IMG/VR virus record: IMGVR_UViG_3300029305_002203
Span: 31,565 to 95,564 of that record
DNA: 64,000 nucleotides
Direction: 5' to 3' (one strand)
Source: a virus
Lineage: Duplodnaviria; Caudoviricetes
The notes beneath the pieces are model-generated. The model was not told the DNA's origin. It saw nothing but the letters and a program-made list of their open reading frames with translations, and did not search any database. This document shows, one piece after another, positions 7,889 through 31,194 of the stretch (within the stretch, counting starts at the first letter, position 1; every line of letters starts with the position of its first letter). The translations under genes and the position numbers were made by a program.

Positions 7889-8230
7889 AACTGTTGCGAC
7901 AGATTACGATTTGCGTAAAAAAAATTGAACAACCAAGATTTATCTTAACAAAAGTTGCGTAAAAGTTGCGTAAAAATCGCAAGTAGGGGTTGCGAAGCCA
8001 GTAAAATCAATGGTTTCAAAAATTCTTATCAAAGCAGATGTTAGGATAAATTATTCGGCAAAGATATATGCGAATGACGGTTCAAATCCCCTTATTTTCT
8101 AGGATTTGAGCCGTTTTTCTTTACTCAAAAACTAATTCTTGATGCGTAATTATAATGGCATAACTTGGCATAAAACGGCATATTTTTTCAGTGTTTTGCG
8201 TATGAAATTGCAACGGATTTGCGTAAATTA
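7880..8230. repeat. attP-like region with TGCGTAAAA arm-type repeats
   Basis: at least 7 copies of (T/A)TGCG(TA) in two clusters (7881-7975, 8141-8230) immediately after int. Confidence 0.6.
8077..8119 (+). terminator. intrinsic terminator
   Basis: ACGGTTCAAATCC...GGATTTGAGCCGT stem followed by T run. Confidence 0.7.
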
Positions 8231-8317
8231 TGAATGCAAGAATCTTCGGCTAAGTTTCGCAAATTAAGACCAAGTAACCGGGTAATTTTCTTGAAATAAT
8301 TATTTCAAATAAAAAGT

Positions 8318-8360
8318 AAAAAAGGGGACATTCTCATTGAGAATAATCCCCTTGATTTTT
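8318..8360. terminator. terminator after rep
   Basis: AAGGGGA...TCCCCTT stem with A/T tracts. Confidence 0.65.
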
Positions 8361-8363
8361 TAT

Positions 8364-9170
8364 TTACATGTGTACCAAATTTTGATAATGCGTATCTAAT
8401 GTTAGTACAGCATTATATAAAACTGATAGAATAAAATTTCTCATATTTGTTATCTTACTCGGATAACTATTAATCGCATCAATAGTATAAGTAATATGAT
8501 TCATATTAACTTTCAATAATATAATTTTCAAATGTTCACAATTTATTTCCCCATTATTAATTTTAATACGTTCATAGTTATTAACGAATATATCTACAAT
8601 TACATCTACAATATTATCTACCAGTTCTTTATCTGACGAACCAACAAACACAGGCTTATAATCTATATTTGTTTGTATGATGTTAGTATATAAAGTATTA
8701 TTCTTTATAGTATTATTACTTAAAGTCTTATTATACGAGTGGGTTTCCCACTGCATAGGTAAGCTACCGAGTGGGTTTGCCACAAGTGGAGAAGCCACAT
8801 GTGGGTTTTCAACATATGGCTTTATAGAAGTTTGAGCCGTAGGTGGATTTTCAACATATGGGTTATCACATACTTCATATTCATAATAAAACTGTTTTGT
8901 TTCGTCATCTTTAAGCCTATGTTGTATAAGATAACCATTGTCTTTTAATTCTTTCCACGCACCTCTAAAAGAAGTTTCACCATCCGTAGATTTATTAATT
9001 AAGAACTGCTTATAAAGAATGAAGTTCTCCAAACTAATATAAGATTCAATGAGTGATAATAATCCCTTGGCTTTCAAAGATAAATTCTCGTCTCTAAGAG
9101 CAATGTTACTTACTTGAGCAAATGATGTCTTTTTCTTTCTGAAAGCTCCTGATTGCTGCATATAAATCAC
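8364..9170 (-). CDS. replication initiator-like protein (N-terminal wHTH, helical C-terminal domain)
   Basis: FAQVSNIALRDENLSLKAKGLL typical of phage/plasmid initiators; repeat-encoded linker; KITNMRNFILSVLYNA C-terminus. Confidence 0.75.
   Translation of the reverse strand: MIYMQQSGAFRKKKTSFAQVSNIALRDENLSLKAKGLLSLIESYISLENFILYKQFLINKSTDGETSFRGAWKELKDNGYLIQHRLKDDETKQFYYEYEVCDNPYVENPPTAQTSIKPYVENPHVASPLVANPLGSLPMQWETHSYNKTLSNNTIKNNTLYTNIIQTNIDYKPVFVGSSDKELVDNIVDVIVDIFVNNYERIKINNGEINCEHLKIILLKVNMNHITYTIDAINSYPSKITNMRNFILSVLYNAVLTLDTHYQNLVHM
8739..8862. repeat. iteron-like repeats inside rep gene
   Basis: GTGGGTTT at 8739, 8771, 8801 and GTGGATTT at 8843; last two extend to 19 bp GTGG(G/A)TTTTCAACATATGG. 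Confidence 0.6.
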
Positions 9171-9173
9171 TCC

Positions 9174-10226
9174 TTATTTAATTAGTTTCATTAGTTTTTC
9201 TCTTGCAGAAAGTTCTTGAGTTGGTTTCTTATTTTGTATAGTTATAGTGTAATCATCTTTGAATGTTACACCAGCACTAAACTGCATATCTAACTCAATT
9301 TTCTTTTTGTCTTCTTTAATAGATTCGTATAATTTGTTAATAATAGTCATTGGATATTGCAATCCACTCATAAATATCATATCTGTTTTAGTCTGATATC
9401 CTTGGAATATATCTCTCCAATATCCAAAGGTTAATTGTAACTCATCATAATCAACTTTCACAGTCTTACGCATAGTAGAAGATTTAATCCCACAGTAGTA
9501 TAATGTATTACGTGGTTCAATATCGGCAAAAATATTATTTGCAATAGAAGTCTTTATTGCCGATGTAATATCTGTTTGTGTAGGTTTGCGAACAAAATGA
9601 TTGAGAATACCATATCCCTTTTGTTCTAACATTGCACAGATTTCAGAATAATCATAAATACCATCAATAGAAGTAGACACATCTGATATAAGAGAATAGA
9701 TTAAATTAGCAAGTGTCTCATTGCTTTTAATAAAATTAGACTCTTTATTGTTATCAACAATAAATACAGTATGTTGAGCACAACCGAATAACTCTTTAAG
9801 TAATTCATATGAATTGGTTTTTGCTTGTAATGACTCTGATAAACTTGGAATAGTAATAACCGGAATAACAATTTTTCCTAATTCATTTTCTAATAACTCT
9901 GTCATTAATGCACACATTCCAGAAGAAGTACCACCACCAGTTGATCCAAATAAAAATACATACTTTCCAGTTAAATAACGTTCTATGTGTTTTAATATAT
10001 CCTCATAATTATGTGCTAAATATTCTTTAGATACATCTCTGTCTTTGTGACAACCAATCGCCCCCTTAACGTGATAGTAGTGCATATCTTGTAATCCTAA
10101 ACTATTCAAATCTTCCATAGCAGAATTAATATAAAAACTTGCCAAGTTATATTTTTTAAAAGCTGCAACCTGATTTCCACCACAAGCACCAATTCCTAAT
10201 AATCCAAAATCTTTTAAGTCATGCAT
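9174..10226 (-). CDS. tubZ: tubulin/FtsZ-family GTPase, TubZ-like
   Basis: GIGACGGN, INS, GSTGGGTSSG tubulin signature, VDNNK, DxxE T7-like loop. Confidence 0.85.
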   Translation of the reverse strand: MHDLKDFGLLGIGACGGNQVAAFKKYNLASFYINSAMEDLNSLGLQDMHYYHVKGAIGCHKDRDVSKEYLAHNYEDILKHIERYLTGKYVFLFGSTGGGTSSGMCALMTELLENELGKIVIPVITIPSLSESLQAKTNSYELLKELFGCAQHTVFIVDNNKESNFIKSNETLANLIYSLISDVSTSIDGIYDYSEICAMLEQKGYGILNHFVRKPTQTDITSAIKTSIANNIFADIEPRNTLYYCGIKSSTMRKTVKVDYDELQLTFGYWRDIFQGYQTKTDMIFMSGLQYPMTIINKLYESIKEDKKKIELDMQFSAGVTFKDDYTITIQNKKPTQELSAREKLMKLIK

Positions 10227-10228
10227 AC

Positions 10229-10489
10229 TTATACCCCCTTAATTAAATTAATACCATCTTCAGTAATGTAATACATTTTTTGATTACCATAGTTCCCTGA
10301 TTGACAAACCAAACCTTTATCAATTAATGAGGATAAATGTTTCCAAATACAAGATCTTTTTACTTCGGTTATATTCATTTCTTTAATAGTCAACCCAAGT
10401 ATATGATTTGTTGCCCCATTAGAATCTAAGGAACTTAAAATGAGATAATCAATTCTGGAAAGTTCTGTATGATTCCCTGCTGTTTCCAT
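10229..10489 (-). CDS. winged-helix DNA-binding protein, TubR-like
   Basis: ILSSL...TIKEM...IWKHLSSLIDKGLV...YYITEDG; directly upstream of tubZ; GGAGG RBS. Confidence 0.7.
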   Translation of the reverse strand: METAGNHTELSRIDYLILSSLDSNGATNHILGLTIKEMNITEVKRSCIWKHLSSLIDKGLVCQSGNYGNQKMYYITEDGINLIKGV

Positions 10490-10560
10490 ATGTTCCCTCC
10501 TTTTCTTAACAGTCACAAAATGTTATAAAGTGTTACAAAGTGTTCCTTTGTTGTTCACAT
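10461..10560. repeat. 10-bp-period TGTT repeats, tubC-like centromere
   Basis: tgtttccata/tgttccctcc ... tgttataaag/tgttacaaag/tgttcctttg in 10-bp phase upstream of tubR. Confidence 0.5.
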
Positions 10561-10587
10561 TATAAACAGTATTGTTTATAAAGTCAA
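10559..10587 (-). promoter_or_regulatory. tubRZ-rep promoter with palindromic operator
   Basis: TTGACT-17-TATAAT on minus strand; palindrome TTATAAACA-gtat-TGTTTATAA at 10560-10581. Confidence 0.7.
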
Positions 10588-10638
10588 CAGATATATTTTT
10601 TATTTTGTGATATAATTATAGTGAAGGGAGAGAAGAGT

Positions 10639-10836
10639 ATGGAAGTTAATTATGATAAATTGTTTGTATATATGTTTAAAAATAATATAAGTAAAAGTGA
10701 GTTAGCTGAAAAGGCTGGGATTAGTAGAAATACAATCATTAAAATGACAAAAGGTGAGCCAGTACATTTATCTGTAATATTAGCAATTTGTGAAGCCTAT
10801 GGACTTCCATTATCAGATGTAATTCAAGAAAAATAA
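10639..10836 (+). CDS. XRE/Cro-family HTH regulator
   Basis: ISKSELAEKAGISRNTIIKM; divergent from tubR. Confidence 0.85.
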   Translation: MEVNYDKLFVYMFKNNISKSELAEKAGISRNTIIKMTKGEPVHLSVILAICEAYGLPLSDVIQEK

Positions 10837-10878: not shown

Positions 10879-12207
10879 TTATTCAGATAAATCTAATAGC
10901 ATATTATATTCATCCTCAGAAATAATTTTTAATGCCCAATCTTTAGGACAATACATTTTAAATTTCTTATTTATATTATTCTTCTTATAGTACATATTCC
11001 ATAAGTAAACATTAGCCAAAGAACGAGCTTTATGCATTTCACATATGTATGTTGCACGTTTGTCCGGTGTGCCAAATTCTTGATAATTATATGCGCTACA
11101 CCACGAACACCCTTCAGCAATAGGGCAGTAAAAACATTCATCTGTACTTTGAGTTTTACGATCAATACAGTTTAAACAATGCAAACAATCTTTTTCACAT
11201 TTAGATGATGCAATGCCATCATTTACATTTCCGATCCTCATTGGATTACGAGTACAACCAAGAGATGACTCCATATATCTAATACAAGGATATAAGTACC
11301 CATCTGGGTCACATGATAACATTAATCCAGTTCCTCCACACCAATTTTGTAGGTCATTTTCATTTTTCTGTTTGAAGAAGCTTTCTTCAAATAAAGAACA
11401 ATATATATCCCCAACTAAGTCATTATCAATAAAATAATTGGCAATCTTTTTTAATTGTTTATAAAATTCTACAGAGTGTTCTTGTTCCCATCCTTTTTCA
11501 TAAACACAATTTGCATTTATATCTAAATAGCCCAAATCAACCATATGAATAATTGCATCATAAAGATAATTTATGTTACCAGGAGCAATAGTTATTTTGC
11601 TTCCCATATAATTACCTTTTGCAATCCAATCGTTTGCACCAGCAACTGCAATATCATAGCTTGGATTTCCATTAGGGAATATTCTGCAAGAGTCATGTAG
11701 TTCTTTATTACCATCAATAGTGATAGAAAAAGACATATGATCTTTATTTTTATTTAAAAACTTTTGCACTCTTTCATCAAAATAAAGTACGCCATTAGAA
11801 CATATACTTATACAATAATTCGTTGCCCAAGGATGTATCAATTCAATGGTGCGTTCTCTAAAATAATCTACGATTTGATCTATTAATTCAATTTCAAGAA
11901 AAGGTTCTCCACCAATAAATTCAAGTATGATTGCAGGAGAGTTTTCAGGATTAATATATTCTTTAAAACCTTTTTTCCCGGAGAGTAATAAGTCAATATA
12001 TTGCTTTGCAATATCAAAAGACATTCTTCTTTTTCCTTTATTGATTTGGTAACAATATGTACATGCAAGGTTACAATTATCTGTCACTTGAAAAGTTACA
12101 GTTCTTGATAATACCATTTTAGATGAGTCATTAGATGAATATTCAGGGTACAATCTTGCAATCATATCTTGCCATTGTTCAAGTCTTCTTAATTTCTTTT
12201 CTGTCAT
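10879..12207 (-). CDS. radical SAM/SPASM peptide maturase, CXXX-repeat target type
   Basis: CNLACTYC, FIGGEP, SPASM Cys motifs WCGG..YPC..CFYC..GCSWC..C. Confidence 0.9.
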   Translation of the reverse strand: MTEKKLRRLEQWQDMIARLYPEYSSNDSSKMVLSRTVTFQVTDNCNLACTYCYQINKGKRRMSFDIAKQYIDLLLSGKKGFKEYINPENSPAIILEFIGGEPFLEIELIDQIVDYFRERTIELIHPWATNYCISICSNGVLYFDERVQKFLNKNKDHMSFSITIDGNKELHDSCRIFPNGNPSYDIAVAGANDWIAKGNYMGSKITIAPGNINYLYDAIIHMVDLGYLDINANCVYEKGWEQEHSVEFYKQLKKIANYFIDNDLVGDIYCSLFEESFFKQKNENDLQNWCGGTGLMLSCDPDGYLYPCIRYMESSLGCTRNPMRIGNVNDGIASSKCEKDCLHCLNCIDRKTQSTDECFYCPIAEGCSWCSAYNYQEFGTPDKRATYICEMHKARSLANVYLWNMYYKKNNINKKFKMYCPKDWALKIISEDEYNMLLDLSE

Positions 12208-12228
12208 TCCTTTTACTCCTATAATTCC

Positions 12229-12576
12229 TTATTCAACATTTTCTAAAGCTGCAATTCCACATTCGCATAAAACATCTATTGTCATAATATTAGTAGTAAA
12301 ATCAACACTCCAGTTATACTGATGTTTACCATATAATTCTTCTGGAACATATAACTTTTCAACTTCCAATTTTGCCATTTCATACTCTGCCTTAATTCTT
12401 GACAACTCTTCAGAATATTTCAAAAAAGGTTTGCTTACAAACAAACTATCATCAGTATCATCCTTATGCATCTCAAGTAATTTAGTAATAATTTCTTCTC
12501 TTGTGAATACTTCATAATTTAATCTCTGTAAATAATTAACCATATCCTGAGTAACACTAATTTTAATCTTTTTCAT
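12229..12576 (-). CDS. accessory protein of CXXX-repeat modification system
   Basis: small helical protein ending in 'YNWSVDF', between Cys-rich target and maturase. Confidence 0.65.
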   Translation of the reverse strand: MKKIKISVTQDMVNYLQRLNYEVFTREEIITKLLEMHKDDTDDSLFVSKPFLKYSEELSRIKAEYEMAKLEVEKLYVPEELYGKHQYNWSVDFTTNIMTIDVLCECGIAALENVE

Positions 12577-12598
12577 AATTTAATTCTCCTTATTTTCT

Positions 12599-13891
12599 TT
12601 ATACTGAAGCTTTTGCTGAGCCAAAACATTGTGCAGAGCAAGTAGCATAACAATTTGTTGAGCATGTTGTTGAACATGAATTTTTACATGTGGCTGTACA
12701 ATTTGTATTACAACTACTTCCACACCCAGTAGAACATGTTGTATAACAAGTAGTAGTACATTGGCCGTAACAAGAACCTTTGCAACCTGAACATTGAGAA
12801 GAACATCCGGCACAACCATCACAACCCGAACATGAAGCGCAAGAGCCACTACATCCTGAGCAACCTGAACCACATCCTGATGAACAACCATTACAACCAC
12901 CAGTACAACTAGTACATCCACTAGAACATCCGGTACCACATCCTTCTGCACATCCTGTGCCGCATCCTATAGCACATGAGCCTCCGCATCCATCTCGGCA
13001 AGCACCGTCACAACCAGAACATCCGTTACATCCTCCGCAAGAACTTGTACAATCACCAGAACAACCACTAGAACATGCACTTGCACAACCTGAACCACAA
13101 CCACTTGTACAGTTTGAACCACAACCGCCTTGGCAGCCATAACATCCACCACCACATCCTGCGCCACAACCAGTAGAACAACTACCACCGCAACCAGAAC
13201 AACCGGTGCAGTCAGCACATCCAGACGAACAACCTGATGAACAAGAAGCACCGCATCCACCAGAACAAATATTACCGCATCCGTTAGCACAAGTTGTTCC
13301 ACAAGTAGCAGTACATCCACTGCCACAACCGCCAGAACATCCTGAACAGCCACCATCACATCCTGAACACGATGAACAAGACGAACTGCAACCAGCACAT
13401 CCTCCACAAGCAGAAGCGCAAGTAGTGCCACAACCAGTACACGCAGTTCCACATCCTCCGCTACATGTATTACCACAACTTCCTATACAAGTTGCAGAGC
13501 AACCGCCAGTACAAGTTCCGCTACATCCGTTACATCCTCCTGAACAAGTACCAACACACAATCCAGTACAAGCACCTCTACAAGATGAGGTAGTTCCGGT
13601 CATAGTTTCTTTTGCCAATGTATCAACATAAGTAATTAATTCATTTGTGAAACTGCTTGGTATAAGTTCATTCTGTTTAACGAATTTTAAGTTTCCTTTA
13701 TCTTTAATTTGCAGTAACAAGTCTATTGTCTTCTGACCATGTTCTGCTAAAATTGTTCCACCTTGTTTTGGGGCAGTAGTAAAATCATACGTTGTTGCAG
13801 CAAAAGAAGAAAGAGATCCATATCCAGATCTCCTTGCCATTTCTGCTTTAACTTTATTTTTCAAACTAACAATTTCTGTTGCTGTAAGCAT
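12599..13891 (-). CDS. Cys-rich CxxC/CxxxC repeat protein (about 430 aa), probable maturase target
   Basis: about 100-aa N-terminal domain then about 325 aa with Cys every 3-4 residues; ATG after GGGGGTGA RBS. Confidence 0.85.
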   Translation of the reverse strand: MLTATEIVSLKNKVKAEMARRSGYGSLSSFAATTYDFTTAPKQGGTILAEHGQKTIDLLLQIKDKGNLKFVKQNELIPSSFTNELITYVDTLAKETMTGTTSSCRGACTGLCVGTCSGGCNGCSGTCTGGCSATCIGSCGNTCSGGCGTACTGCGTTCASACGGCAGCSSSCSSCSGCDGGCSGCSGGCGSGCTATCGTTCANGCGNICSGGCGASCSSGCSSGCADCTGCSGCGGSCSTGCGAGCGGGCYGCQGGCGSNCTSGCGSGCASACSSGCSGDCTSSCGGCNGCSGCDGACRDGCGGSCAIGCGTGCAEGCGTGCSSGCTSCTGGCNGCSSGCGSGCSGCSGSCASCSGCDGCAGCSSQCSGCKGSCYGQCTTTCYTTCSTGCGSSCNTNCTATCKNSCSTTCSTNCYATCSAQCFGSAKASV

Positions 13892-13896
13892 AAAAA

Positions 13897-14856
13897 TCAC
13901 CCCCAGACTGCTTTCGTTGCGACCCAAGCGGTGCCATTATGGTATTTCATTATTCCACCATTACCAGTGTCAATCCATAATAATTCTCTATCAGTAGGAG
14001 CTGTAGCACCTATATAACTTCCACCTGAACCTGTTTCAATTGTTGTCCATGTTGTACCGTTTTTATATTGTAATTCTGCGTTATAAAATCGAATACCATG
14101 AGCACCATTCACTGTATTTATAGGTACATCATGTGCAGTTAATCTGTCGCCTACATTATCTATTTGTTCAGATACATCGTTTAATTGTCCAGCAAAATCA
14201 CTTAATTGTTCAGCAAAATCGTTTAATTGTGAAGTAATATCATCAGTTATATTTGCAAGACATAACCAATTAATATTTGTATCAGTGGGTTCACTGTCAG
14301 AATTTTGAACAAGACACTGCCAAAAAGCATTATTATGAGCAACAAAATCATTTACTAAATAAAGTGATAAATTATTCCATAAACCTCTTGGGGAAAGTCC
14401 CAAACCTGACTCACCTTTCTCACCCTGAATAATTCTTGGAATCCAATATGTAGTGTTTGTTGGAAGAGTAGCAATAGGTGTATCATCTCTTAAACATTCA
14501 AATGTTTGAGTTATGCCATTAACCGAATATGTTACAAAATTGTATTTTACATATTTGGTTGTTGAATTCCATTCACCTTTATTGACTACTGTTTCATGTA
14601 TATATGTTTGTATATTATTTAAAAATAAATCTTGGACTTCTTCGATAGTCTTACTCAATCTATTCATATATACACTGTCAATAATACATTTTTGTAATTC
14701 TGCATTAGATTGTAATAATGTAGCAGCATTAGCAAATTGACCATTTGCTATATAACTATTAAATTGTCTCCAGTCAGAATACACACTACTTGATACATCT
14801 GTTTTTAAATCAAATCTTTGTACACTGTCAGGAAACGTTGTATAACTATTTGCCAT
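13897..14856 (-). CDS. module B tail fibre/baseplate attachment protein
   Basis: KGEWNSTTKY..YNFV repeats, QGEKGE, C-terminal GATAPT..LWIDT..KYHNGTAW; N-terminus paralogous to 28314..28643. Confidence 0.7.
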   Translation of the reverse strand: MANSYTTFPDSVQRFDLKTDVSSSVYSDWRQFNSYIANGQFANAATLLQSNAELQKCIIDSVYMNRLSKTIEEVQDLFLNNIQTYIHETVVNKGEWNSTTKYVKYNFVTYSVNGITQTFECLRDDTPIATLPTNTTYWIPRIIQGEKGESGLGLSPRGLWNNLSLYLVNDFVAHNNAFWQCLVQNSDSEPTDTNINWLCLANITDDITSQLNDFAEQLSDFAGQLNDVSEQIDNVGDRLTAHDVPINTVNGAHGIRFYNAELQYKNGTTWTTIETGSGGSYIGATAPTDRELLWIDTGNGGIMKYHNGTAWVATKAVWG

Positions 14857-14867
14857 ATATTTTCCTC

Positions 14868-16277
14868 CTAGCTATAAGGATCTGTATCATAAAAAGCAAC
14901 CATGCTAACATCCATAGTACCTCCAGTTGTTGATCCGTTTATTTGTTTTGTTACATATCTTTTTATATCTTTAGTAGTGTATGATTGATGTTCAATTAAC
15001 CAATTAACATCCAACCAAGGAATATCAATCATATTTAAATTTATACTTTCTTGCAATCTACAAGCATGATAAAGTTCATAATTTGCTCTATCTTGAGCTA
15101 ATGAATTTGAATAAATCTTACTATATTCATCACTGGATAATATCTTAGTTATTTCTTCCCCAATATTAGACTTATGAAATGGTGAGAGAGTGTTTGTTTC
15201 ACTTGCTTCTGCATACACCTGATGTTCACCAAGCCAATAAAAGTCATTATTTACTTTTCTATATTTGAATACATTGTATGTTTCTATGGCAAGCGTTTTT
15301 GCAGGGATATGTTTTCCTTTGTCATCTACAATATAAGCCGTTGTTCCTGCAATAGTTAACTTGGAATCTGCACCATTTGTTTGAGGAATAAGAATTGCAT
15401 ATAAATCAAAGTTGCCTACAGATGTGACAGTTGCAATAGTGGGAGTATATGTATTAGTAGAAGTATCATAAGTACATGTATCCGTAGAATAAGTTGGTTC
15501 TAATTGTTGTCCCCATACAACAACTCGGTTATATATTTCTTTAAATGAAGTGTTTAAACCCTCACTGATAACAAGAGGAGAAATAAAATCATAGGTAAGC
15601 AAAATATTATCACTATCTTGATGTGGGATTTTTTGAATAATAAATGTACCATTAATATCAAAAAACATTTCAAAATCAGAAAATAAAGAAACTACTTCGT
15701 TTAATACATCATAATAAGTTTGTGTTGCATCAAATTCCATTTCGTATGGAATAAGTAATCCATCTAAGTCAGATAAAATATATTTAGTTACATTTGCTTC
15801 TTTAAGAAGTGTAACAAGTAATTCTCGAACATTTTCATCTTCCTCAAACTTAATAGAACTCTTTAATGCACCGTTTCTGTCACCATTTAATTTACTCATA
15901 AGATCCGAACAACTAAGTGAAAGAGTATTAGTAGATGAATCAAAAGAGTAATTACTGTCAAGCATTATAAATGTGCCTTTAAGATATTTAATTATCTCAC
16001 CAGTTCGAACCTCCTTGATGCAAATATAAGGTCTAATATACTTGTCCATCCATATACGTTTATCAGTTCCTATTAACATAGAACTATCAGTAACTAATAA
16101 ATCCATAGAATAAGTTCGTCTAATCGCAGAGTTTGCATCAATAGAAAACGAATCAGATATCAATTTCCCTTCTACAACATCAACAACTTTCATATCTGAA
16201 TTTAACAACTCAACAGTTACAAACAAATCCTTTACATTTTGATTTATGATATTTTTATCTCTCTGAGTAATAACCAT
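14868..16277 (-). CDS. module B baseplate hub/Tal-like protein
   Basis: paralog of 28647..30266 (IRRT, LSLSCSD..LNG.RNG, EMFFDING.F, IPWLD). Confidence 0.7.
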   Translation of the reverse strand: MVITQRDKNIINQNVKDLFVTVELLNSDMKVVDVVEGKLISDSFSIDANSAIRRTYSMDLLVTDSSMLIGTDKRIWMDKYIRPYICIKEVRTGEIIKYLKGTFIMLDSNYSFDSSTNTLSLSCSDLMSKLNGDRNGALKSSIKFEEDENVRELLVTLLKEANVTKYILSDLDGLLIPYEMEFDATQTYYDVLNEVVSLFSDFEMFFDINGTFIIQKIPHQDSDNILLTYDFISPLVISEGLNTSFKEIYNRVVVWGQQLEPTYSTDTCTYDTSTNTYTPTIATVTSVGNFDLYAILIPQTNGADSKLTIAGTTAYIVDDKGKHIPAKTLAIETYNVFKYRKVNNDFYWLGEHQVYAEASETNTLSPFHKSNIGEEITKILSSDEYSKIYSNSLAQDRANYELYHACRLQESINLNMIDIPWLDVNWLIEHQSYTTKDIKRYVTKQINGSTTGGTMDVSMVAFYDTDPYS

Positions 16278-16280
16278 AAG

Positions 16281-17171
16281 CTATACTCCTTCCACATCGA
16301 CATCAGATAAACCAGCATTGTAAAGATCTGTTGTGCTATCACTGTCGCCTATTTCCGTGAATTCTATATTATAAATTATATTATCTGGATGACCATCTAC
16401 TGATTGAGAGATTGTATTACCGGTGCTAACCATCCATCTTCGCCCTTTGTTATCCTTTAAAATCATAGCTTGATTTTCTGTTAAAAAATTATTTACTTCT
16501 CGTCTGTAAGCAACGGCATTTTCAAAATCTAATTGACAATTATCTTTCACTGGTACAAAACTTGTACTCATAGAAAGTGTATCATATTGTGACATTCCGT
16601 TAGAGATAGCAAATGGTTTCTTTCTGCCAAGAGTAGTTATAAATTCCTTATTCTGATTTGTTGTTACTTCCAACGATAAATTCACAAATGCATGATATTG
16701 TTTTGCTTGTGTACACAAGTAACATCCATCAAAATCTGATATAACAGTATTGGTTATATAATTGGCCTCTGTACTATTTAACACCGGAACAATTGCAACT
16801 TCGTATTGTGTTTTATTCCCTTTGAGATAGTAATAAGTTTTAGCAAAATTAAAATCTTCCTCGGAATTAATCTCGTATTCGTAGATGGTTCTCCATAAGG
16901 TGTCGCCATATTCTCTTACCTTAATCCTCATAGAACTTATTGCACTAATTGGAATCAGAATATTTCCAGCAAGTAAATTCCCCTGGAATGTTGCCCAGAA
17001 GATTGTATTAATGTCCCAAATTAAAGAATCGTTTTGTTTGTTATAATCTGCATTTGCACTAACATATAAATCATTAATTAAACAGTTCATTACATCAATA
17101 ACATTTATATTATCTCCCAATGTTGTTTTAAGCACATCCGTGCCAGTTACAGTCGCACCAAGAAAAATCAT
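16281..17171 (-). CDS. module B distal-tail-like protein
   Basis: paralog of 30268..31179 (MIFLG, LKDNKGRRW, FTEIGD, LYNAGL). Confidence 0.65.
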   Translation of the reverse strand: MIFLGATVTGTDVLKTTLGDNINVIDVMNCLINDLYVSANADYNKQNDSLIWDINTIFWATFQGNLLAGNILIPISAISSMRIKVREYGDTLWRTIYEYEINSEEDFNFAKTYYYLKGNKTQYEVAIVPVLNSTEANYITNTVISDFDGCYLCTQAKQYHAFVNLSLEVTTNQNKEFITTLGRKKPFAISNGMSQYDTLSMSTSFVPVKDNCQLDFENAVAYRREVNNFLTENQAMILKDNKGRRWMVSTGNTISQSVDGHPDNIIYNIEFTEIGDSDSTTDLYNAGLSDVDVEGV

Positions 17172-18181
17172 ACAATCACCTCCATTTCAAAGAGAGTATC
17201 TTTTCTTTTAATCCATAACGAAATCTCATCTTCTGTATATGGATTAGCTTTTGTAATCATATAATCATTATTTTTATATATTGCATGAAGTTCAAAATAA
17301 TATATATCAGAAAACGTATCATATTTATAATCAACAATGACAATTTCATCATTTCCTGATAATCTTAAAATTCTTTCATTTACACCAAACTGTGAACCCT
17401 TAATTAATAATGAAAAGTCTCCTGAAATAGTAAATCCTTTATTGAAATGAACAACATTATTTGTCAAGTCTGCAATCTCATTATCAATATAAGTAACATC
17501 AGAGTCAGATGTACCTTCTACAGATATAATGTTGGATTTCATATAAACTCCACCAGTGTCATACATATTCTGTAACTCAAGTACAAAATATGCTTCCGAT
17601 TTAATAAAGTCAGCAGAAAAATTAATTCTACCAGTAGATAACACTATACCATTGATTGTTTCCCCTGTAGCAAGAATAGAATAGTGGTTATTATCTTGTA
17701 AGTTAGTTATTTTTACAGTATCAAGTACATAACGTGTATTAGAATCGTATATTACAACACTATCTGAGTTGTATACTCTAATACGATATGATTGTAACAA
17801 TTCTCCCTCTGATTGAGCATAGGCAATATTTACACCATATGTCTGTGCCTGTATAATTTGGTCTGGTTCAATGTTGATTTGAAAAGTGGGAGTTGAATAG
17901 CAATAGAAGAGAAGAACATCTGACCATTCAGAATTAACACCATTGCTATCAGTAACCCTAATCGCAGCATTATATAAAGTACCATTTACTAAGCCAGATG
18001 AAATAGGTATCGCATGTTCTAATCTCATTGTTGTTTGAGTCTGTTCGTATACCACTTCGTTTGTTGTGTTATTTTTTATCACAAGTGTATTACTAATAGG
18101 TTGATTCCCTAGCCATGAGAACTTAATTGTACTCCCAAGGGAGGAGTCAAAGCTAGGTATCAAATATAAGCCCGGTTTCAT
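17168..18181 (-). CDS. module B Ig/FN3-like tail-tip protein
   Basis: paralog of 31195..32271 (PxFD, SDVLLFYCYSTPTF, GETING). Confidence 0.65.
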   Translation of the reverse strand: MKPGLYLIPSFDSSLGSTIKFSWLGNQPISNTLVIKNNTTNEVVYEQTQTTMRLEHAIPISSGLVNGTLYNAAIRVTDSNGVNSEWSDVLLFYCYSTPTFQINIEPDQIIQAQTYGVNIAYAQSEGELLQSYRIRVYNSDSVVIYDSNTRYVLDTVKITNLQDNNHYSILATGETINGIVLSTGRINFSADFIKSEAYFVLELQNMYDTGGVYMKSNIISVEGTSDSDVTYIDNEIADLTNNVVHFNKGFTISGDFSLLIKGSQFGVNERILRLSGNDEIVIVDYKYDTFSDIYYFELHAIYKNNDYMITKANPYTEDEISLWIKRKDTLFEMEVIV

Positions 18182-18461: not shown

Positions 18462-18503
18462 AAATAAAAAAAGGGGCAGTCATAAATTAATATGACCGCC
18501 CCT
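18462..18503 (-). terminator. hairpin/terminator after TMP exon B
   Basis: GGGGCAGTCATA...TATGACCGCCCC with U tract on minus strand. Confidence 0.65.
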
Positions 18504-23847: not shown

Positions 23848-25539
23848 TTACACGGTTTTCCTGTCTTCCTTATGACCATATTGTAAGTAATGCAACACAT
23901 ATGGTTTATAGCCATCCTTTTCTCCAAATGCATTTTGTAAATCGGGATTGCTTGATTTATAAATTGTAACATTAAATGTACTTTTTGCTTGACGACCCTC
24001 TTTAATACCATAATTAATATAGTGATTAAATAATTTTGTAGCATCAGTACCAAAATGCCTCTTCAAATCACTATAAGAATTTGCATAGTACATAGGATCG
24101 AATACAAGAGAATAATCAACTCCGTTATATACATATCCCTTTGTCGTAGTGATATCTAATGGTTTTGAGGTTGAAGTAGAACTGGAAGAAGATAATTTAA
24201 GAACTTGTCCAACCTTAACGATATAAGGAAATTTAATCCTATTTAAATTAGCTATTGTTTTCCATGCAACACCAGTTTTCTGTCCAATCTTAGAAAGAGT
24301 ATCACCTTTCTGTACAATGTAAGTATTTGCTGATACTGTTATAACAGGGGAGTTAGTAATTGGTGTAGAAATACTATTGTCTACCTTTATTCCCACATAA
24401 TCTAAAAATCCTTTAGCTACATCTTCACCTTGTTCCTTGCAGAACATTTCAGTTTTCATTAATGCCGCTTCTTCTTTATTAGTCATAAAACCAATTTCAA
24501 CCAGGCAAGCAGCTTTAACATTCATAGCAACACAGTTACACATTGCAAGAGATTGTTTCTTTACACCACGATTCTTTTGTTTTGTGCCTTGAACAAGTCG
24601 TGCTTGTATTTTAGTTGCCATTGCAAAAGAGTCACCAATATATGCAGAATTACTATGAATTAATGTTTCTACTCCATTTGCAGAGTTCCATACTGATTGA
24701 TGTGCATTAGCATGAAAAGAAATAGAATAGTGACAACCCTCATTCTTAATTTGTTTCTGTCTTGTTGATAATGCCACATCAGGATCATCTGTTGCATTAG
24801 TATCATCCCAACCAACTCTGAATGTTGATATGCCGTATTTCTGCAAATACTGTTCACAGTAGTAAGCAGATTTTACGTTAATCCAGTGTTCCAGATGGTT
24901 GTCCGGGGTGCGCTTACCGGCAGTATTACTGCCATGACCAGCATCTATTGCCACTTTGCATACCATATTCCCATCCTCCTTTACTTTAATCTTTAAAATA
25001 TCATTTAAAATATCCAAAACCTGATATCCATAACTGTCCTTTGCTTTATTTGCCTCTTCCAAGCTTTTATACTTCTTGGTGTTATAACCCGGTACAGCCC
25101 AAGTCCCACCTAAATCTTCCATATGAGGAGCAGTCCCACCTTTAACATTTATAAACCACTGTGTTCTTCTAGGGTCTACATTTAGTTCATTTAAAGATGA
25201 TTTAGTCGCATAAGATTTTGCATGTTGTGCGTGTGCTAATATACCAATTTCAATGGAAGTAAAAGAGCAACCTGGAACTCCACCGGTAGCACCAATACCG
25301 GCAAAATTATTTTGTGTATATTTAACATCTCCACCATACTTTAAGTTGCCTGTTTCTTTAAGCATCTGACAGAAGATTAAATCCCCACGAACACCTTCTT
25401 TTGCTGGAATATCTAAATATAGCTGGCAAAACTCTATGACAGATATACTTCTTGAAAGTTTAGGATTTTTATTTTTAGACAATAAATAAGAAGCCATCTG
25501 TTGTGCAGTGGCTTGTGATTTTCCTAAAATTAAAGTCAT
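23848..25539 (-). CDS. endolysin: glucosaminidase-like + Amidase_3 + LysM + C-terminal repeats
   Basis: ETG..QNNFAGIG; IDAGHG..E..SFHANA..LVEIGFMTN; YIVQKGDTLSKI LysM; HY..YG.KEGR repeats. Confidence 0.9.
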   Translation of the reverse strand: MTLILGKSQATAQQMASYLLSKNKNPKLSRSISVIEFCQLYLDIPAKEGVRGDLIFCQMLKETGNLKYGGDVKYTQNNFAGIGATGGVPGCSFTSIEIGILAHAQHAKSYATKSSLNELNVDPRRTQWFINVKGGTAPHMEDLGGTWAVPGYNTKKYKSLEEANKAKDSYGYQVLDILNDILKIKVKEDGNMVCKVAIDAGHGSNTAGKRTPDNHLEHWINVKSAYYCEQYLQKYGISTFRVGWDDTNATDDPDVALSTRQKQIKNEGCHYSISFHANAHQSVWNSANGVETLIHSNSAYIGDSFAMATKIQARLVQGTKQKNRGVKKQSLAMCNCVAMNVKAACLVEIGFMTNKEEAALMKTEMFCKEQGEDVAKGFLDYVGIKVDNSISTPITNSPVITVSANTYIVQKGDTLSKIGQKTGVAWKTIANLNRIKFPYIVKVGQVLKLSSSSSTSTSKPLDITTTKGYVYNGVDYSLVFDPMYYANSYSDLKRHFGTDATKLFNHYINYGIKEGRQAKSTFNVTIYKSSNPDLQNAFGEKDGYKPYVLHYLQYGHKEDRKTV

Positions 25540-25561
25540 AATTTCACTTCCTTCTAAAGTA

Positions 25562-25593
25562 GAAGAGTACGGTGATATTTCACACCGTACTCT
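25562..25593 (-). terminator. hairpin between holin and endolysin
   Basis: AAGAGTACGGTGA..TCACACCGTACTCTT inverted repeat. Confidence 0.55.
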
Positions 25594-25602
25594 TAATTAC
25601 AA

Positions 25603-25950
25603 TTATTTACTTGTATTACTAGCAAGTTCTTTTGCAGTATTCAAATCTCTAACCGCTGATTCGATTAAAACATTCAATTCTTCCTCAGTAATAGAGTATT
25701 TGGTCTTATCAAGAATACCGTTAATAAAATTAAGAACATATTCCTTTTTCTGTTCTCCAAGACCAGTACCAACAAAAATCTGTTCTGCAGCTCTTACTGC
25801 ATAATCAACATACATTGCAATAGTATCAAACTTTTCTGCACCGATTTCCTCTTTAAGTTTAGGAATTACATATCTTGTAATTAAAACAACAGCCACTGTA
25901 ATAACTAAACCAATTACCATTTTTAAAATTTCCATCATCCATGTTTCCAT
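25603..25950 (-). CDS. LL-H family holin
   Basis: N-terminal TM, AVRAAEQ, G.QKK..V, LIESAV. Confidence 0.85.
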   Translation of the reverse strand: METWMMEILKMVIGLVITVAVVLITRYVIPKLKEEIGAEKFDTIAMYVDYAVRAAEQIFVGTGLGEQKKEYVLNFINGILDKTKYSITEEELNVLIESAVRDLNTAKELASNTSK

Positions 25951-25979
25951 AATTCATTTCTCCTTTTCTTTTATGAAAT

Positions 25980-26004
25980 TAAAAAAGAGCCAATATAGGC
26001 TCTC
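25980..26004 (-). terminator. intrinsic terminator
   Basis: minus strand GAGAGCC-tatatt-GGCTCTTTTTT. Confidence 0.65.
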
Positions 26005-26017
26005 AGTTACCATAACT

Positions 26018-26275
26018 TTATTCATTTAATATTTGATTAATATCAATTTGTTCCCATATCTCTTTTGGTAAACTACCTAATACTTTAGGAACATTTTCTT
26101 TTGCTGATTTTTTTAAGTACCAAATATTACAGGTGGCAACCTCGCCCCAAGCAAGAGCAGCAATAGTAGTAATATTTGACATATCTAAATTAAAAAAAGT
26201 TCCCACAACCAAAACAATTGTAAGAACTATTGCAGAAATATAACTTGCTAATAATATTTTTTTACTTGTCTCCAT
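26018..26275 (-). CDS. two-TM holin-like protein
   Basis: METSKKIL, 2 TM, WYLKKSAKEN. Confidence 0.6.
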   Translation of the reverse strand: METSKKILLASYISAIVLTIVLVVGTFFNLDMSNITTIAALAWGEVATCNIWYLKKSAKENVPKVLGSLPKEIWEQIDINQILNE

Positions 26276-26287
26276 AATGCTATTCCC

Positions 26288-27319
26288 TTATATCTCTTCA
26301 AAACTTTGTTTATCATTATTCCATTTATATTTATAATCTGAAATCGGTTCTTTTGTCTTATATGAAGCTATTTGATTAAGAGTATCACCGTCAGACCCTA
26401 TAAATATAATACTATTTTTCATTTGAAGCGACTCATAAAATAATATTGCATTAACCTTAACATCAGGGTCACTCCAAAATAGTTCCCATATATTTAAATC
26501 ATTTTTTTTTAAACAATAAAACCCACTGCCGGCACTATATTCATATAGATATATTTTATTATCATATAGAAATAGAAATTGTGGTCTAAGTTCTTCACAT
26601 TCTATATTTTCAATATATGAAAAACTATTTGTAGATTCTTTATAACTAATTATATAATGCTTTTTCGAAGCAAACATATGAATTTCATCTTCTATAACAT
26701 ATCCACGTTTATAAATATTATCATCAATTGATGGTATAATACCTCCACATGGAATCCATTCCTGCTGTGCTTCATCCCACACACAAGTTCCATTATAATT
26801 AATATTGGAAACTGTTATATTTCGATATAAACAAAATAATTTATTGTGTAACACAAAATAGTCACAATATCTTGAACTACTAAATTCTGTATCTCTAAAT
26901 CCAATGTGAGCAGCACCAATTTTATATGCTGCCCTATTTGTTATTTTGGGGTCATAAACATACATTTCGTTTTTCGCTTCATACATAATATAAATTAAAT
27001 CATTATATACTATCGCATGACATGGATCCGTGTATTGTGGTAAAACACTTGGTTTTTCGCTCCATTTAAATCCATTATATTTCATAACGCAATAAGGGGA
27101 CATGACATTATTACTACAATTAAAAACATAAATATTATTATCATATAAAACCGAAGCCTTCTCTGGATGATTAAATTTATATTGATTACCATCAGAATCT
27201 TTTGGTAAATCTGGCAAACGTCCATATTGTGAAAACACTTCTTTTCCATTATGAATCCAGTTAACAATATTATAATTATTAAACAAAACATTGTTTATTT
27301 CAATTCCGTTATATATCAT
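26288..27319 (-). CDS. module A Kelch/beta-propeller-like protein (putative receptor binding)
   Basis: repeated V-Y-x-x-x-I-Y-V / Y-x-x-x-x-W units about 45-50 aa apart. Confidence 0.55.
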   Translation of the reverse strand: MIYNGIEINNVLFNNYNIVNWIHNGKEVFSQYGRLPDLPKDSDGNQYKFNHPEKASVLYDNNIYVFNCSNNVMSPYCVMKYNGFKWSEKPSVLPQYTDPCHAIVYNDLIYIMYEAKNEMYVYDPKITNRAAYKIGAAHIGFRDTEFSSSRYCDYFVLHNKLFCLYRNITVSNINYNGTCVWDEAQQEWIPCGGIIPSIDDNIYKRGYVIEDEIHMFASKKHYIISYKESTNSFSYIENIECEELRPQFLFLYDNKIYLYEYSAGSGFYCLKKNDLNIWELFWSDPDVKVNAILFYESLQMKNSIIFIGSDGDTLNQIASYKTKEPISDYKYKWNNDKQSFEEI

Positions 27320-27329
27320 TATTGCCTCC

Positions 27330-27563
27330 TTATTCTGTATAATCAGATGAACGTGTGGTTAATACACCTGTTTCTTCATCAAAAGAAACAATAAAAATAC
27401 AACTATTTAATTGAGTTGTCATATCATCAATTTTTTGCGTCAAACTAGACCCATCACTCATTTCAACTGTATCAGCATGAGTCCATTCTGATACAAGTTT
27501 ATAATTTTCATCATCAATTTTTAAATGTCGTTTGTATTTTTCGTATCCAGATAATATTGACAT
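27330..27563 (-). CDS. module A small tail-associated protein
   Basis: THADTVEMSDGSSL fibre-type motif. Confidence 0.55.
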   Translation of the reverse strand: MSILSGYEKYKRHLKIDDENYKLVSEWTHADTVEMSDGSSLTQKIDDMTTQLNSCIFIVSFDEETGVLTTRSSDYTE

Positions 27564-27581
27564 ATTATCCCTCCTTTTTTC

Positions 27582-28301
27582 TTACATATTTAAGCCGATG
27601 ATTCCAAAGATATTTAAACCGTATGTTACTGTACTGTTTCCAATACGAACAACACATTCTCCATTATATTTTCCAATATTAGCAGTAATCTCAGAATAAG
27701 AAGCAGAAGATGTATGTGTATAATTTAATACTTCAGTATCATTTATTGTTATTGTAAAATTCTCATTTGCATAAAGATAAGCATCAATCTGCAATTTTCT
27801 TATACTAGATAAATCCATTTTAAGTTCTATATATGAATCTGAATTAACAAAATTTTTGGCAGATGATCCATTTGCATACTTACCATTTGTTAGTCTAAGA
27901 CCATTGGAATATGAACCTAATGTAATATTATTCTCACTCTCTAAGGTACAATTAGTGTATGCCCCATCACTATTACTAGATGCATTGTAATAATATAATT
28001 CACTAGGAGGTTGCAACCACCATGTTTTTTTGTCGGCATCTTCGGTTGGCTCATCACTTAAATATATCTCATCTAATGAATATTCATTGTTTAAAATATG
28101 AGTTCCTAAAATATTAATTCTTTCAGCCAACTCATTAAAAAAAGATGCTCTAGCACCTTTGTCATAATTTTCTTCGTCTAAATAATTAGTGGCTTCTGTA
28201 TATTTCCCCTCATTAATCAATGCAGCATGTGTATCAATTACATCTCTATCGTTTGCCCCCATATCACTTAATGGTTTAAATTTTAATTCTTCTATTTGCA
28301 T
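27582..28301 (-). CDS. module A tail fibre/adhesin-like protein
   Basis: N-terminus related to 28314..28643 and 13897..14856; beta-rich C-terminus. Confidence 0.55.
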   Translation of the reverse strand: MQIEELKFKPLSDMGANDRDVIDTHAALINEGKYTEATNYLDEENYDKGARASFFNELAERINILGTHILNNEYSLDEIYLSDEPTEDADKKTWWLQPPSELYYYNASSNSDGAYTNCTLESENNITLGSYSNGLRLTNGKYANGSSAKNFVNSDSYIELKMDLSSIRKLQIDAYLYANENFTITINDTEVLNYTHTSSASYSEITANIGKYNGECVVRIGNSTVTYGLNIFGIIGLNM

Positions 28302-28313
28302 ATTTCACCATCC

Positions 28314-28643
28314 TTACATGGGTTGAAACCAAGAACCATTTTGTAATTGATCTTCCGGTTCCTCACTACTAATAATGGTAGGAGAGTAATACATACTAAA
28401 CACTCCCATATTATATACTTCTTCGCTCAATCTATTAACGAAAGCACTATTTATAATGTATGGTTCTAACACAGATTTATTAGCTTCATAATACTGATAA
28501 GCACCTGAAATATCTTCCTGATCAATATATTCATAATAAGTATCAATCATTGTTTTAACAGTATCATTCACATCTTGTTTTTCCACAAAACTAGGCAAAG
28601 ATGTCGGAAAAGTGCTTCCGAAATTATGATTATAATTTGGCAT
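28314..28643 (-). CDS. module A baseplate attachment protein
   Basis: STFP..QDV..IINSAFVNRL paralogous to the N-terminus of 13897..14856. Confidence 0.6.
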   Translation of the reverse strand: MPNYNHNFGSTFPTSLPSFVEKQDVNDTVKTMIDTYYEYIDQEDISGAYQYYEANKSVLEPYIINSAFVNRLSEEVYNMGVFSMYYSPTIISSEEPEDQLQNGSWFQPM

Positions 28644-28646
28644 TTA

Positions 28647-30266
28647 TTATCCCTCCTCCTTTGTTATTAAAAATAAAGGATAGAATCTCGACATTGTAAT
28701 AGAAGTAGTACAAGACTCCATCTCATTAGATATGCTTTTAACTATATATTGATGAACAGTATCATCTTGTTGTTTTTGATATTCTACTTTTGTGTTTGTG
28801 TCTAAAAATGGTATCATTTTTGTTGCAATCGTTACCGTATCAAAAACAGAAGAAGATTGTTTGTTGTAATATTTTGCGTTTTCTATTGCTACTGAATCAG
28901 ATAAAATATTATCCCATTCATCACCATATTTAACATCTAACACTTCTCCAATTTTCTGTACAGCAAAAGGACTATCTGGTTCAACTCTTAATACTACATT
29001 TCTTTCATCACAATTATACTTATTAGCAAAATATGAAATAGTATATTTAGAATCATCTGCATTATTAGTCAATGCACAAAGAGCATGAGGTTGATATTGC
29101 CCTAAGTAATAAGCAACCAATTTTGTTCCTTGTTGTGCTATTTTAAATACATAAGTTTTAGCAGACTCAATTGTACCCGGCTCAATACTTTCCTCTGTAA
29201 ATTCTTTGTAGATTGGCAATACATCTAATTCATTAATTTGAAATTTCATATTTGTAATGTTAGTAGATGGTGAAACAAATCCAATATAATCTCCGACATC
29301 ATATCCTTCATAATCCTCTAATGTAAGTACATAGGTATCATTATTTGTCGTACAATCTGTACAATATCTATCCACTTCATATGATTTGCCAAAAACTTCT
29401 GTAACATTTTTAATGGTATCAATCGAATATGTTACATTTTCGGTTGATTCAGCTAACAATATTTGTTGTAAATAATCATTATCTAAAATCACTGAATCAT
29501 TTTCTCTTGAAGGAATCATATTAAAACAAAAATGTCCGTATATATCAAAATACATCTCGTAATTTGGATAGAGATTTTTAATCTCTTCGAAAATTTCTGA
29601 GATGTAAGCACCTACACTATATTCTAAATCATAAGGAAGTTGATTCCATAATGGTTGCAGCTTTCTATATTCTTCATAATTTTCATTGAATTCCGGTAAT
29701 GCCTTTGGTTCTCCAACATCGCTAATGATATAATCTGTAATTCCAGCTAATTCTTTTAGAATATCTTCGGTAAGTTTCTTAATAATTACAGGATTTCCGT
29801 CTTTGTCATAATTCGGAATGTCAATAATTGGAGCACCACCTAATTGCCCATTTCTTGTGCCATTAAAAATAGAGTACCAATCGGACAGATTAAGAGTAAG
29901 AGAGTTATCAATAGCACTATATACAGTATTAGCTTCAGTGATTAAATAATAACCACAATCAAACCATTTATAGTCATCATCTCTTAAACTATATATACCT
30001 ATTTGTAATAAAAAATTATATCCAATCCAAGAAAATAATCTTGTTTCAATAGAAAGCTCTGAATAATATGTGTCTAACAACAGTGTGAGAGAAGTGGTTC
30101 TTCTTATATCTGAATCAGGATCAACTGCATATGAACCTATATTTGAAATACCAACTAATTCATCAATATAATTTCTATTATTGTCTAAAACAATTAATTT
30201 ATATTTATAATCTACGGACGGTTGTGTTATTAAAAGTTTATCATCTTCTGTAATGAGATAATACAT
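28647..30266 (-). CDS. module A baseplate hub/Tal-like protein
   Basis: SDIRRT, LSDW..FNGTRNG, YEMYFDIYG, IPFLD. Confidence 0.7.
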   Translation of the reverse strand: MYYLITEDDKLLITQPSVDYKYKLIVLDNNRNYIDELVGISNIGSYAVDPDSDIRRTTSLTLLLDTYYSELSIETRLFSWIGYNFLLQIGIYSLRDDDYKWFDCGYYLITEANTVYSAIDNSLTLNLSDWYSIFNGTRNGQLGGAPIIDIPNYDKDGNPVIIKKLTEDILKELAGITDYIISDVGEPKALPEFNENYEEYRKLQPLWNQLPYDLEYSVGAYISEIFEEIKNLYPNYEMYFDIYGHFCFNMIPSRENDSVILDNDYLQQILLAESTENVTYSIDTIKNVTEVFGKSYEVDRYCTDCTTNNDTYVLTLEDYEGYDVGDYIGFVSPSTNITNMKFQINELDVLPIYKEFTEESIEPGTIESAKTYVFKIAQQGTKLVAYYLGQYQPHALCALTNNADDSKYTISYFANKYNCDERNVVLRVEPDSPFAVQKIGEVLDVKYGDEWDNILSDSVAIENAKYYNKQSSSVFDTVTIATKMIPFLDTNTKVEYQKQQDDTVHQYIVKSISNEMESCTTSITMSRFYPLFLITKEEG

Positions 30267-30267
30267 A

Positions 30268-31179: not shown

Positions 31180-31194
31180 GCTTTATTCCTCCTT

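Follow-up and report, generated by a model that had tools for sequence, protein, structure and literature searches.

The stretch of DNA analyzed here (the window; 64,000 nucleotides, nt) is part of the 95.5-kb IMG/VR virus record IMGVR_UViG_3300029305_002203, which features a G+C content of about 30%. Its minus strand carries, from 18181 to 10879, a unit of seven tightly packed genes between two strong terminator-like hairpins, in which a tail-fiber gene is followed by a cassette encoding a protein with a long regular array of cysteines (the Cys-ladder protein), a small accessory protein and a radical S-adenosylmethionine (rSAM) enzyme of the SPASM type. An earlier interpretation without database searches (the sequence-only reading) had described this order of fiber gene, 430-aa protein with more than 80 Cys, accessory gene and rSAM/SPASM gene, and all four lie on the minus strand where it had located them. 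The cassette is best explained as a phage form of the CXXX-repeat radical-SAM maturation system, situated within a tail-tip operon. The features of the unit are as follows:

18472–18503, minus strand: intrinsic-terminator-like hairpin (13-bp stem and T run) upstream of the unit, after the tape-measure gene
17168–18181, minus strand: 337-aa tail-tip/baseplate protein, gene 1 of tail module B; paralogue of the module A gene at 31195–32271 (27% identity)
16281–17171, minus strand: 296-aa tail-tip protein, phrog_27355; paralogue of the module A gene at 30268–31179 (29% identity)
14868–16277, minus strand: 469-aa tail protein, phrog_1887 'tail protein', with C-terminal DUF5048; paralogue of the module A gene at 28647–30266
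13897–14856, minus strand: 319-aa tail-fiber protein, matching PHROG 'tail fiber protein' families
13900–14025, minus strand: LWID..Y..W..VWG module, the C-terminus of the fiber (residues 278–319)
12599–13891, minus strand: gene of the Cys-ladder protein, 430 aa, stop codon included, ATG at 13891
13583–13891, minus strand: N-terminal domain of the Cys-ladder protein (residues 1–103)
12626–13582, minus strand: cysteine ladder (residues 104–422)
12229–12576, minus strand: 115-aa accessory protein, no family match
10879–12207, minus strand: radical SAM/SPASM maturase, 442 aa, TIGR04115
10840–10872, minus strand: intrinsic-terminator-like hairpin (13-bp stem and T run), 7 nt past the rSAM stop codon; end of the unit

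The cassette and its place in tail module B

The only terminators of the unit are those at 18503–18472 and 10872–10840. None lies between fiber gene and cassette, and promoter-like matches do not rise above the shuffled background (40 found versus 47 expected), which agrees with the earlier placement of the cassette within tail module B. The phage features two paralogous tail-tip modules with 25–31% identity gene for gene, module A (23848–32271) and module B (13897–18181). The cassette follows module B only, and a search of the whole record with TIGR04115 returned a sole copy (512.3 bits). Homologues of the 337-aa tail-tip protein were likewise found upstream of the cassette in the related loci L007, L009 and L018. 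Module A ends with genes for a 239-aa and a 343-aa protein in place of the Cys-ladder cassette. Beyond the cassette terminator (8364–10836), a divergent XRE regulator is followed by genes for a winged-helix protein, a tubulin-like GTPase and a replication initiator, and an XRE/TubZ/Rep-type layout also occurs past the cassette in L007 and L018 (open reading frames, ORFs, of 351 and about 265 aa).

The 319-aa fiber protein is assigned to its PHROG families with an E value of 8e-12 (phrog_26419). Residues 1–197 form a conserved attachment part, succeeded by a weak CBM_5_12-like stretch (E 0.049, below the cut-off), a coiled-coil-like repeat and the C-terminal LWID..VWG module. The sequence-only reading had gone too far in stating that module B has no other obvious adhesin, since the fiber, which possesses its own C-terminal part with the weak CBM_5_12-like stretch, is a candidate adhesin itself; besides, in L007, whose rSAM is 86% identical and which is the closest relative, the attachment gene is separated from the Cys gene by two extra fiber-type genes. 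Only 5 nt separate the fiber stop codon from the ATG of the Cys-ladder gene, and the final fiber codons TGG GGG TGA (13897–13905) constitute a Shine-Dalgarno-like sequence, GGGGGTGA, for this gene. As the conserved terminal Trp-Gly-stop codons double as a ribosome-binding site, the 'VWG' end may owe some of its conservation to the RNA. The ATG at 13891 is preferred over the TTG at 13927 given by the ORF tool because homologues begin at the same Met.

The Cys-ladder protein and its probable maturase

The 86 cysteines of the ladder occupy residues 104–422, and all 85 Cys-Cys spacings are 3 or 4 (63 CxxxC and 22 CxxC), a regular pattern which cannot be due to chance. Cysteine makes up 27% of the array and the rest is mainly G (85), S (57), T (35) and A (21), with Gly favored immediately before each Cys and with only 6 Asp and 1 Glu as acidic residues. 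The ladder starts with the invariant sequence CRGACTGLC and ends in a conserved T/S/N/Y-rich cap (...C-Y-x-x-C-S-x-Q-C-F-G). Recent tandem duplication was ruled out as the origin of the array, with DNA-level arrays reaching only 2–3.5 copies at 72–91% match. The ORFs in other frames over 12580–13631 are by-products of the repeat composition.

The N-terminal domain (N-domain, about 103 aa) is small, mostly helical and conserved, including the invariant residues R20, R21, G25, P41, G52, D64 and E95. It closes with SS ahead of the first Cys, and the junction with the ladder is an invariant SSCRGACTGLC. An AlphaFold model of the domain (predicted local distance difference test, pLDDT, 77) found no fold match in the PDB (Foldseek best E 7.3; VIA-align best Z 4.8) and only its own family in a viral structure library. 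A profile of N-domain and junction, searched against 1.84 billion representative proteins, retrieved 824 clusters (50% identity) at E<=0.001, 467 of them at E<=1e-10. The nearest ESM Atlas clusters are 50–89% viral and have been named automatically as 'Modification target Cys-rich repeat domain-containing protein'; PF27846 appears in 19–40% of their members as well as in the precomputed annotation of homologues at 43–51% identity. On the ladder itself, the TIGR04114 model gave five sub-threshold stretches, the best at the ladder start (15.7 bits, cut-off 20), and the short-target models TIGR04117 and TIGR04118 remained below their cut-offs (14.6 versus 50 and 8.9 versus 35 bits), matching Cys repeats only.

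The identification of the enzyme as an rSAM/SPASM maturase of CXXX-repeat targets was upheld by TIGR04115, which scored 511.9 bits (cut-off 350) with residues 35–401 aligned to positions 2–358 of the 359 in the model. The next-best families all fell below their cut-offs, namely PapB (162 versus 340 bits), QhpD (103 versus 453) and the SCIFF maturase (97 versus 425). The radical SAM motif CX3CX2C is formed by C45/C49/C52, and the SPASM set of seven cysteines is complete (C290-x12-G303-x4-C308; C358-x2-C361-x5-C367-x2-C370; C389), its last spacing being CX2C, not CX3C. An extra CX3CX2CX2C at residues 337–347, between the SPASM halves, might bind a further metal or Fe-S center. Among solved structures, CteB comes closest (5WGG, E 1.7e-21). 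Since the two align only from CteB residue 82 onward, the N-terminal domain of CteB has no counterpart in the phage enzyme. The maturase genes of three related phages carry inteins at two sites (L023:4825-7212, L024:9865-12330, L045:12170-14113), one near residue 295 at the SPASM start, with Hint and LAGLIDADG homing-endonuclease domains, and the other immediately past the CX3CX2C motif.

The model of the 115-aa accessory protein is confident (pLDDT 91) and comprises a strand, a long helical hairpin and a beta-hairpin. Fold comparison yielded generic helical hairpins only (Foldseek E ~1; VIA-align Z <=7.1); a PqqD-like domain was not seen among them, and the order of elements differs from the usual PqqD order. 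Neither a profile search of PDB sequences nor family scans of NCBIfam, Pfam and PHROGs returned a match. The protein agrees in size and position with TIGR04116 and may be a remote relative of this family, whose model had no match in the genome at E<=10 or in 16 accessory homologues (cut-off 50 bits). When 399 Clostridia genomes were scored to obtain three true members of TIGR04116, hhalign comparison with these gave a probability of 11% over 18 columns only, in the C-terminal W-x-[IL]-D-[FY] hairpin. Likewise, TIGR04119, a domain of 210 positions, had no match in the genome at E<=10, and the enzyme ends 47 residues past its TIGR04115 match.

The sample of N-domain genes comprised 19 contigs from IMG/VR and 17 from bacterial genomes, besides several from metagenomes. 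An rSAM gene (54–86% identity) lies 1–1.7 kb downstream of the ladder gene in all of the approximately 40 viral and bacterial loci with enough flanking sequence. The gene of about 100–118 aa directly before it was detected by tblastn with the window copy in about half of the loci, and most of the others have an ORF of the same size at that place. Every bacterial host in the sample is a strict anaerobe (Lachnospiraceae, Oscillospiraceae, Eubacterium, Emergencia, Raoultibacter), and the isolate assemblies of Eubacterium pyruvativorans i6 and Lachnospiraceae 47-T17 contain prophages of this kind. Judged from this co-occurrence at every locus with enough flank, the Cys-ladder protein is the evident substrate of the enzyme, and because the pairing is universal and the enzyme family fits, it is quite probable that the rSAM enzyme modifies the ladder protein. 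By analogy with the nearest relatives of the enzyme, the likeliest chemistry would be the formation of Cys-derived thioether links. Since the array contains only seven acidic residues, the acceptor residues must differ from those used by PapB and QhpD. Some loci hold two Cys-ladder genes per maturase, in tandem or close together (L011:7047-8951; L045:5582-6820 and 8001-10148). Directly after the maturase, PspA, two TatA-like proteins and TatC are encoded in L004 (14306-16412), a Tat export set carried by a phage or plasmid beside the Cys-ladder cassette, and the same was observed in L005 and L006.

Relatives of the ladder and their link to tail fibers

Among the relatives, ladder length varies from 9 to 144 Cys with register and end cap retained. 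The sizes fall into two classes of 9–18 Cys (10 loci) and 41–144 Cys (25 loci), the long ladders having the Thr/Ser/Asn/Tyr-rich end cap in common. The sequence-only reading had called the chain far longer than normal peptide precursors, which is correct, but with its 86 Cys it is ordinary for phages, 25 of the 35 non-redundant relatives falling into the class of 41–144 Cys. The longest ladder found, with 144 Cys over 547 residues, derives from a metagenome-assembled genome labeled 'uncultured Tenericutes' (L038:5177-7129). In four relatives (P0068, P0094, P0122, P0184), the ladder is followed by non-Cys domains of 150–400 residues; others have additional domains at the N-terminus (P0001, P0155, P0168) or, in P0177, a segment inserted into the N-domain. 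No family match was obtained for the extra domains of these eight proteins, and an Atlas search retrieved unnamed viral clusters only. A conserved N-domain, then a variable short-period repeat and, optionally, a globular domain at the distal end correspond to anchor, shaft and knob; this is how a fiber or stalk is built, and not a leader-core peptide. A fusion of the ladder to a long fiber protein was not found among proteins of 754–2150 aa, which is weak evidence according to the caveat of the tool.

The gene-neighborhood survey of the N-domain, which had been suggested as a check, revealed a strong two-way link with tail-fiber genes. Whenever the upstream gene matches PHROGs, it matches tail-fiber families, and a recognizable fiber-type C-terminus lies directly upstream in approximately 27 of the 34 non-redundant loci. 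In approximately 20 of these 34, the upstream gene ends in the LWID..Y..W..VWG module, usually 3–7 nt before the ladder gene; other fiber ends found there are a Peptidase_G2-like (self-cleaving chaperone) domain and GTGYGxW. The genes of the siphophage L043 run from TMP through Dit and Tal to a 650-aa fiber with the LWID..VWG module, followed by ladder, accessory, rSAM and later a holin. Downstream of the cassette, relatives encode endolysins or more tail genes, and in L001, L013, L020 and L043 the cassette sits between tail genes. In a reverse test, IMG/VR was scanned with the fiber module alone, using a four-sequence alignment, and N-domain and ladder were found just downstream in 62 of 76 loci. 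After clustering at 80% identity, a ladder was present in 13 of 24 clusters and in nine of the 11 with W-G or W-S at the end of the module; the clusters without a ladder are mostly those with the weakest or with internal module matches. Forward survey and reverse test taken together, the association of fiber and ladder therefore holds in both directions. The gene order of the window recurs behind fiber genes in numerous unrelated phages of strict anaerobes.

A distantly related arrangement exists in SPN3US-type Salmonella phages, in which gp168 and gp167 are followed by two rSAM genes and by CXXX proteins that are hypothetical or lack annotation. The former is a tail protein according to PMC5105663, and the latter is annotated as a virion structural protein. 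In SPN3US (JN641803), an unannotated gap of 542 bp (143744-144286) is found at the matching place, between gp166 and gp167. In Salmonella phage STsAS (L047:3133-4154), small unannotated CXXX-repeat ORFs lie between the gene of 'virion structural protein 20' and two rSAM genes.

Proposed function, alternatives and known systems

On the basis of context and architecture, we give an even chance to the view that the product of the ladder gene belongs to the module B fiber or is attached to it. In the anoxic cytoplasm of the host, the enzyme would recognize the ladder protein via its N-domain and the SSCRGACTGLC junction. The accessory protein would probably assist in this recognition, as CteB's N-terminal leader-binding domain is missing from the enzyme. 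Many cross-links would then be introduced along the ladder, and these would be non-reducible because PapB, QhpD and CteB all form thioethers between Cys sulfur and carbon. The N-domain would dock the product on the LWID..VWG end of the 319-aa fiber, where the ladder could serve as the distal shaft or tip of the module B fiber, stiff and resistant to proteases and reductants, with thioethers taking a role that is closed to disulfides in the reducing gut. Such a shaft role fits the relatives with a globular domain after the ladder. That phages of strict anaerobes build their host-recognition fiber partly from an rSAM-stapled protein with dozens of non-reducible cross-links is a tentative proposal which we hold to be possible; stapling of this kind would be an oxygen-independent substitute for disulfides.

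Several observations weigh against this proposal. The position straight after a fiber gene is typical of assembly chaperones as well. On the tree of the N-domain, which is poorly resolved, the upstream fiber end changes label 10 times versus 13.4 times after shuffling, and the weak sorting means that docking is without the support of co-variation. N-domain and accessory protein match no known fold, which leaves attachment and recognition without structural support, and with 6 Asp and 1 Glu in the ladder, a Cys-to-Asp/Glu chemistry of the PapB/QhpD type cannot cover most cysteines. Moreover, the N-domain occurs in no cultured phage of the phage collection. The main texts of the SPN3US papers, as far as accessible, are silent on gp163–gp167, i.e., Cys proteins and rSAM enzymes, in particles, and in the accessible part of the supplements of one of these papers gp163–gp167 were not found by gp or locus-tag name.

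The chaperone-like position leads to the possibility that the ladder protein is a fiber assembly factor, which binds the C-terminal module of the fiber during folding or trimerization and is absent from the finished particle, its role being tuned by the rSAM modification. Such a factor would account for the site directly after the fiber gene, the translational coupling and the strong co-occurrence with one fiber C-terminal module, but not for the need for 40–140 cysteines, a dedicated Fe-S enzyme and the C-terminal globular domain of relatives. Ladders also follow fibers with Peptidase_G2-like or GTGYGxW ends; we regard this role as unlikely. It is decidedly unlikely that the cassette makes a free product of the type of ribosomally made peptides with post-translational modifications (RiPPs), with the N-domain as a 103-residue leader and a modified ladder core acting off the virion, e.g., as a bacteriocin-like or signaling molecule released at lysis. 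TIGR04115 is indeed defined as a peptide maturase with relatives working on leader-bearing peptides, N-domain and junction motif are conserved like a recognition element, and a short class of 9–18 Cys exists. Nevertheless, genes for a protease, an exporter or immunity were not found in the unit, cores of 170–550 residues are without precedent, some members have folded domains behind the ladder, and the link to the fiber gene is tight and two-way, tail genes and cassette being co-transcribed as predicted from the terminator layout. The designation 'RiPP-like' of the sequence-only reading can thus be retained for the enzyme only, given the protease and exporter genes not found in the unit and the enzyme's lack of a leader-binding domain of the CteB type.

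The same reading had also considered a metal-loaded chain, and an array with 27% Cys in CxxC/CxxxC register could in principle act as a metallothionein-like store, as an Fe-S scaffold or as a non-covalent metal holder inside the fiber. However, a store would not need a SPASM maturase at every locus, and fiber synteny and C-terminal domains are left unexplained, so that we consider this function improbable. Finally, the cassette might be lysogenic-conversion cargo (a moron) with a defense, exclusion or host-benefit function, which merely happens to lie at the end of a late operon. The end of a tail module beside lysis/lysogeny genes is a common site for cargo, and the cassette borders an XRE regulator and a plasmid-type TubZ/Rep module. 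Cargo appears highly improbable all the same, considering that promoter-like signals do not exceed the shuffled background, that a terminator before the cassette is missing, that the cassette sits between tail genes and not at their edge in L001, L013, L020 and L043, and that a distantly similar cassette accompanies tail genes in large Salmonella phages related to SPN3US.

If the fiber proposal is true, radical-SAM 'peptide' maturases would also act on full-size structural proteins, and phages would supply post-translational chemistry of their own to keep particles stable in a gut that is reducing and rich in proteases. A virion protein would then be cross-linked enzymatically by radical chemistry for the first time, and no larger substrate of a RiPP-type maturase would be known. 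Moreover, a widespread family of 824 sequence clusters, mostly viral, would gain a function, and protein engineers would obtain a genetically encoded route to long, regularly stapled rods. Even if the fiber idea fails, there remains a large, conserved and uncharacterized enzyme-substrate pair which can be reconstituted from three genes.

Among known systems, phage fiber analogues are provided by the T4-type gp38 distal adhesins with glycine-rich motifs and by fiber segments with collagen-like G-X-Y repeats. By analogy with these, the Cys-ladder protein is likewise encoded by a separate gene after the fiber gene, with an N-terminal part that appears placed for attachment to the tip; it also features a Gly-rich short-period repeat of variable length and, in some relatives, a C-terminal globular domain. 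Similarity in sequence or fold to these adhesins or shafts was not detected, and to our knowledge no known fiber requires a radical-SAM enzyme. From the general RiPP cluster with short precursor, removable leader, PqqD-like RiPP recognition element and protease or exporter, the present unit differs in that its precursor has 430 aa and that protease and exporter genes were not found in it.

By profile and solved structure, the closest characterized relatives of the phage enzyme are CteB (the SCIFF maturase), PapB (which produces freyrasin) and QhpD. In all three, Cys donates the sulfur of the non-reducible thioether links that are formed in Cys-rich substrates. The repeated C-x3-D motifs on which PapB acts have the same four-residue spacing. 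The phage enzyme scores far below the cut-offs of these families and is without the N-terminal leader-binding domain, and its substrate differs by having 86 Cys but 7 acidic residues; the chemistry is therefore perhaps a different one. A QhpD-like grouping of the CteB-type enzymes is supported by a passage from a review.

Full-text searches of the literature found no paper on the chemistry or role of the CXXX-repeat family or on a link to phage fibers; the TIGR04115 enzyme family and the repeat target are already curated in NCBIfam and Pfam, by bioinformatics only. The CXXX-repeat system of NCBIfam comprises TIGR04115, TIGR04116 and TIGR04119 with the targets TIGR04114, TIGR04117, TIGR04118 and PF27846. 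As TIGR04116 and TIGR04119 are unmatched here and the target models remained below their cut-offs, what is held in common with the system as described is limited to the enzyme core and the CXXX register. Like that system, the phage cassette combines a TIGR04115 enzyme with a neighboring protein in CXXX register and a small accessory protein of about 100 aa beside the enzyme; unlike it, the target of the phage cassette is a 430-aa two-domain protein encoded in a tail-fiber operon.

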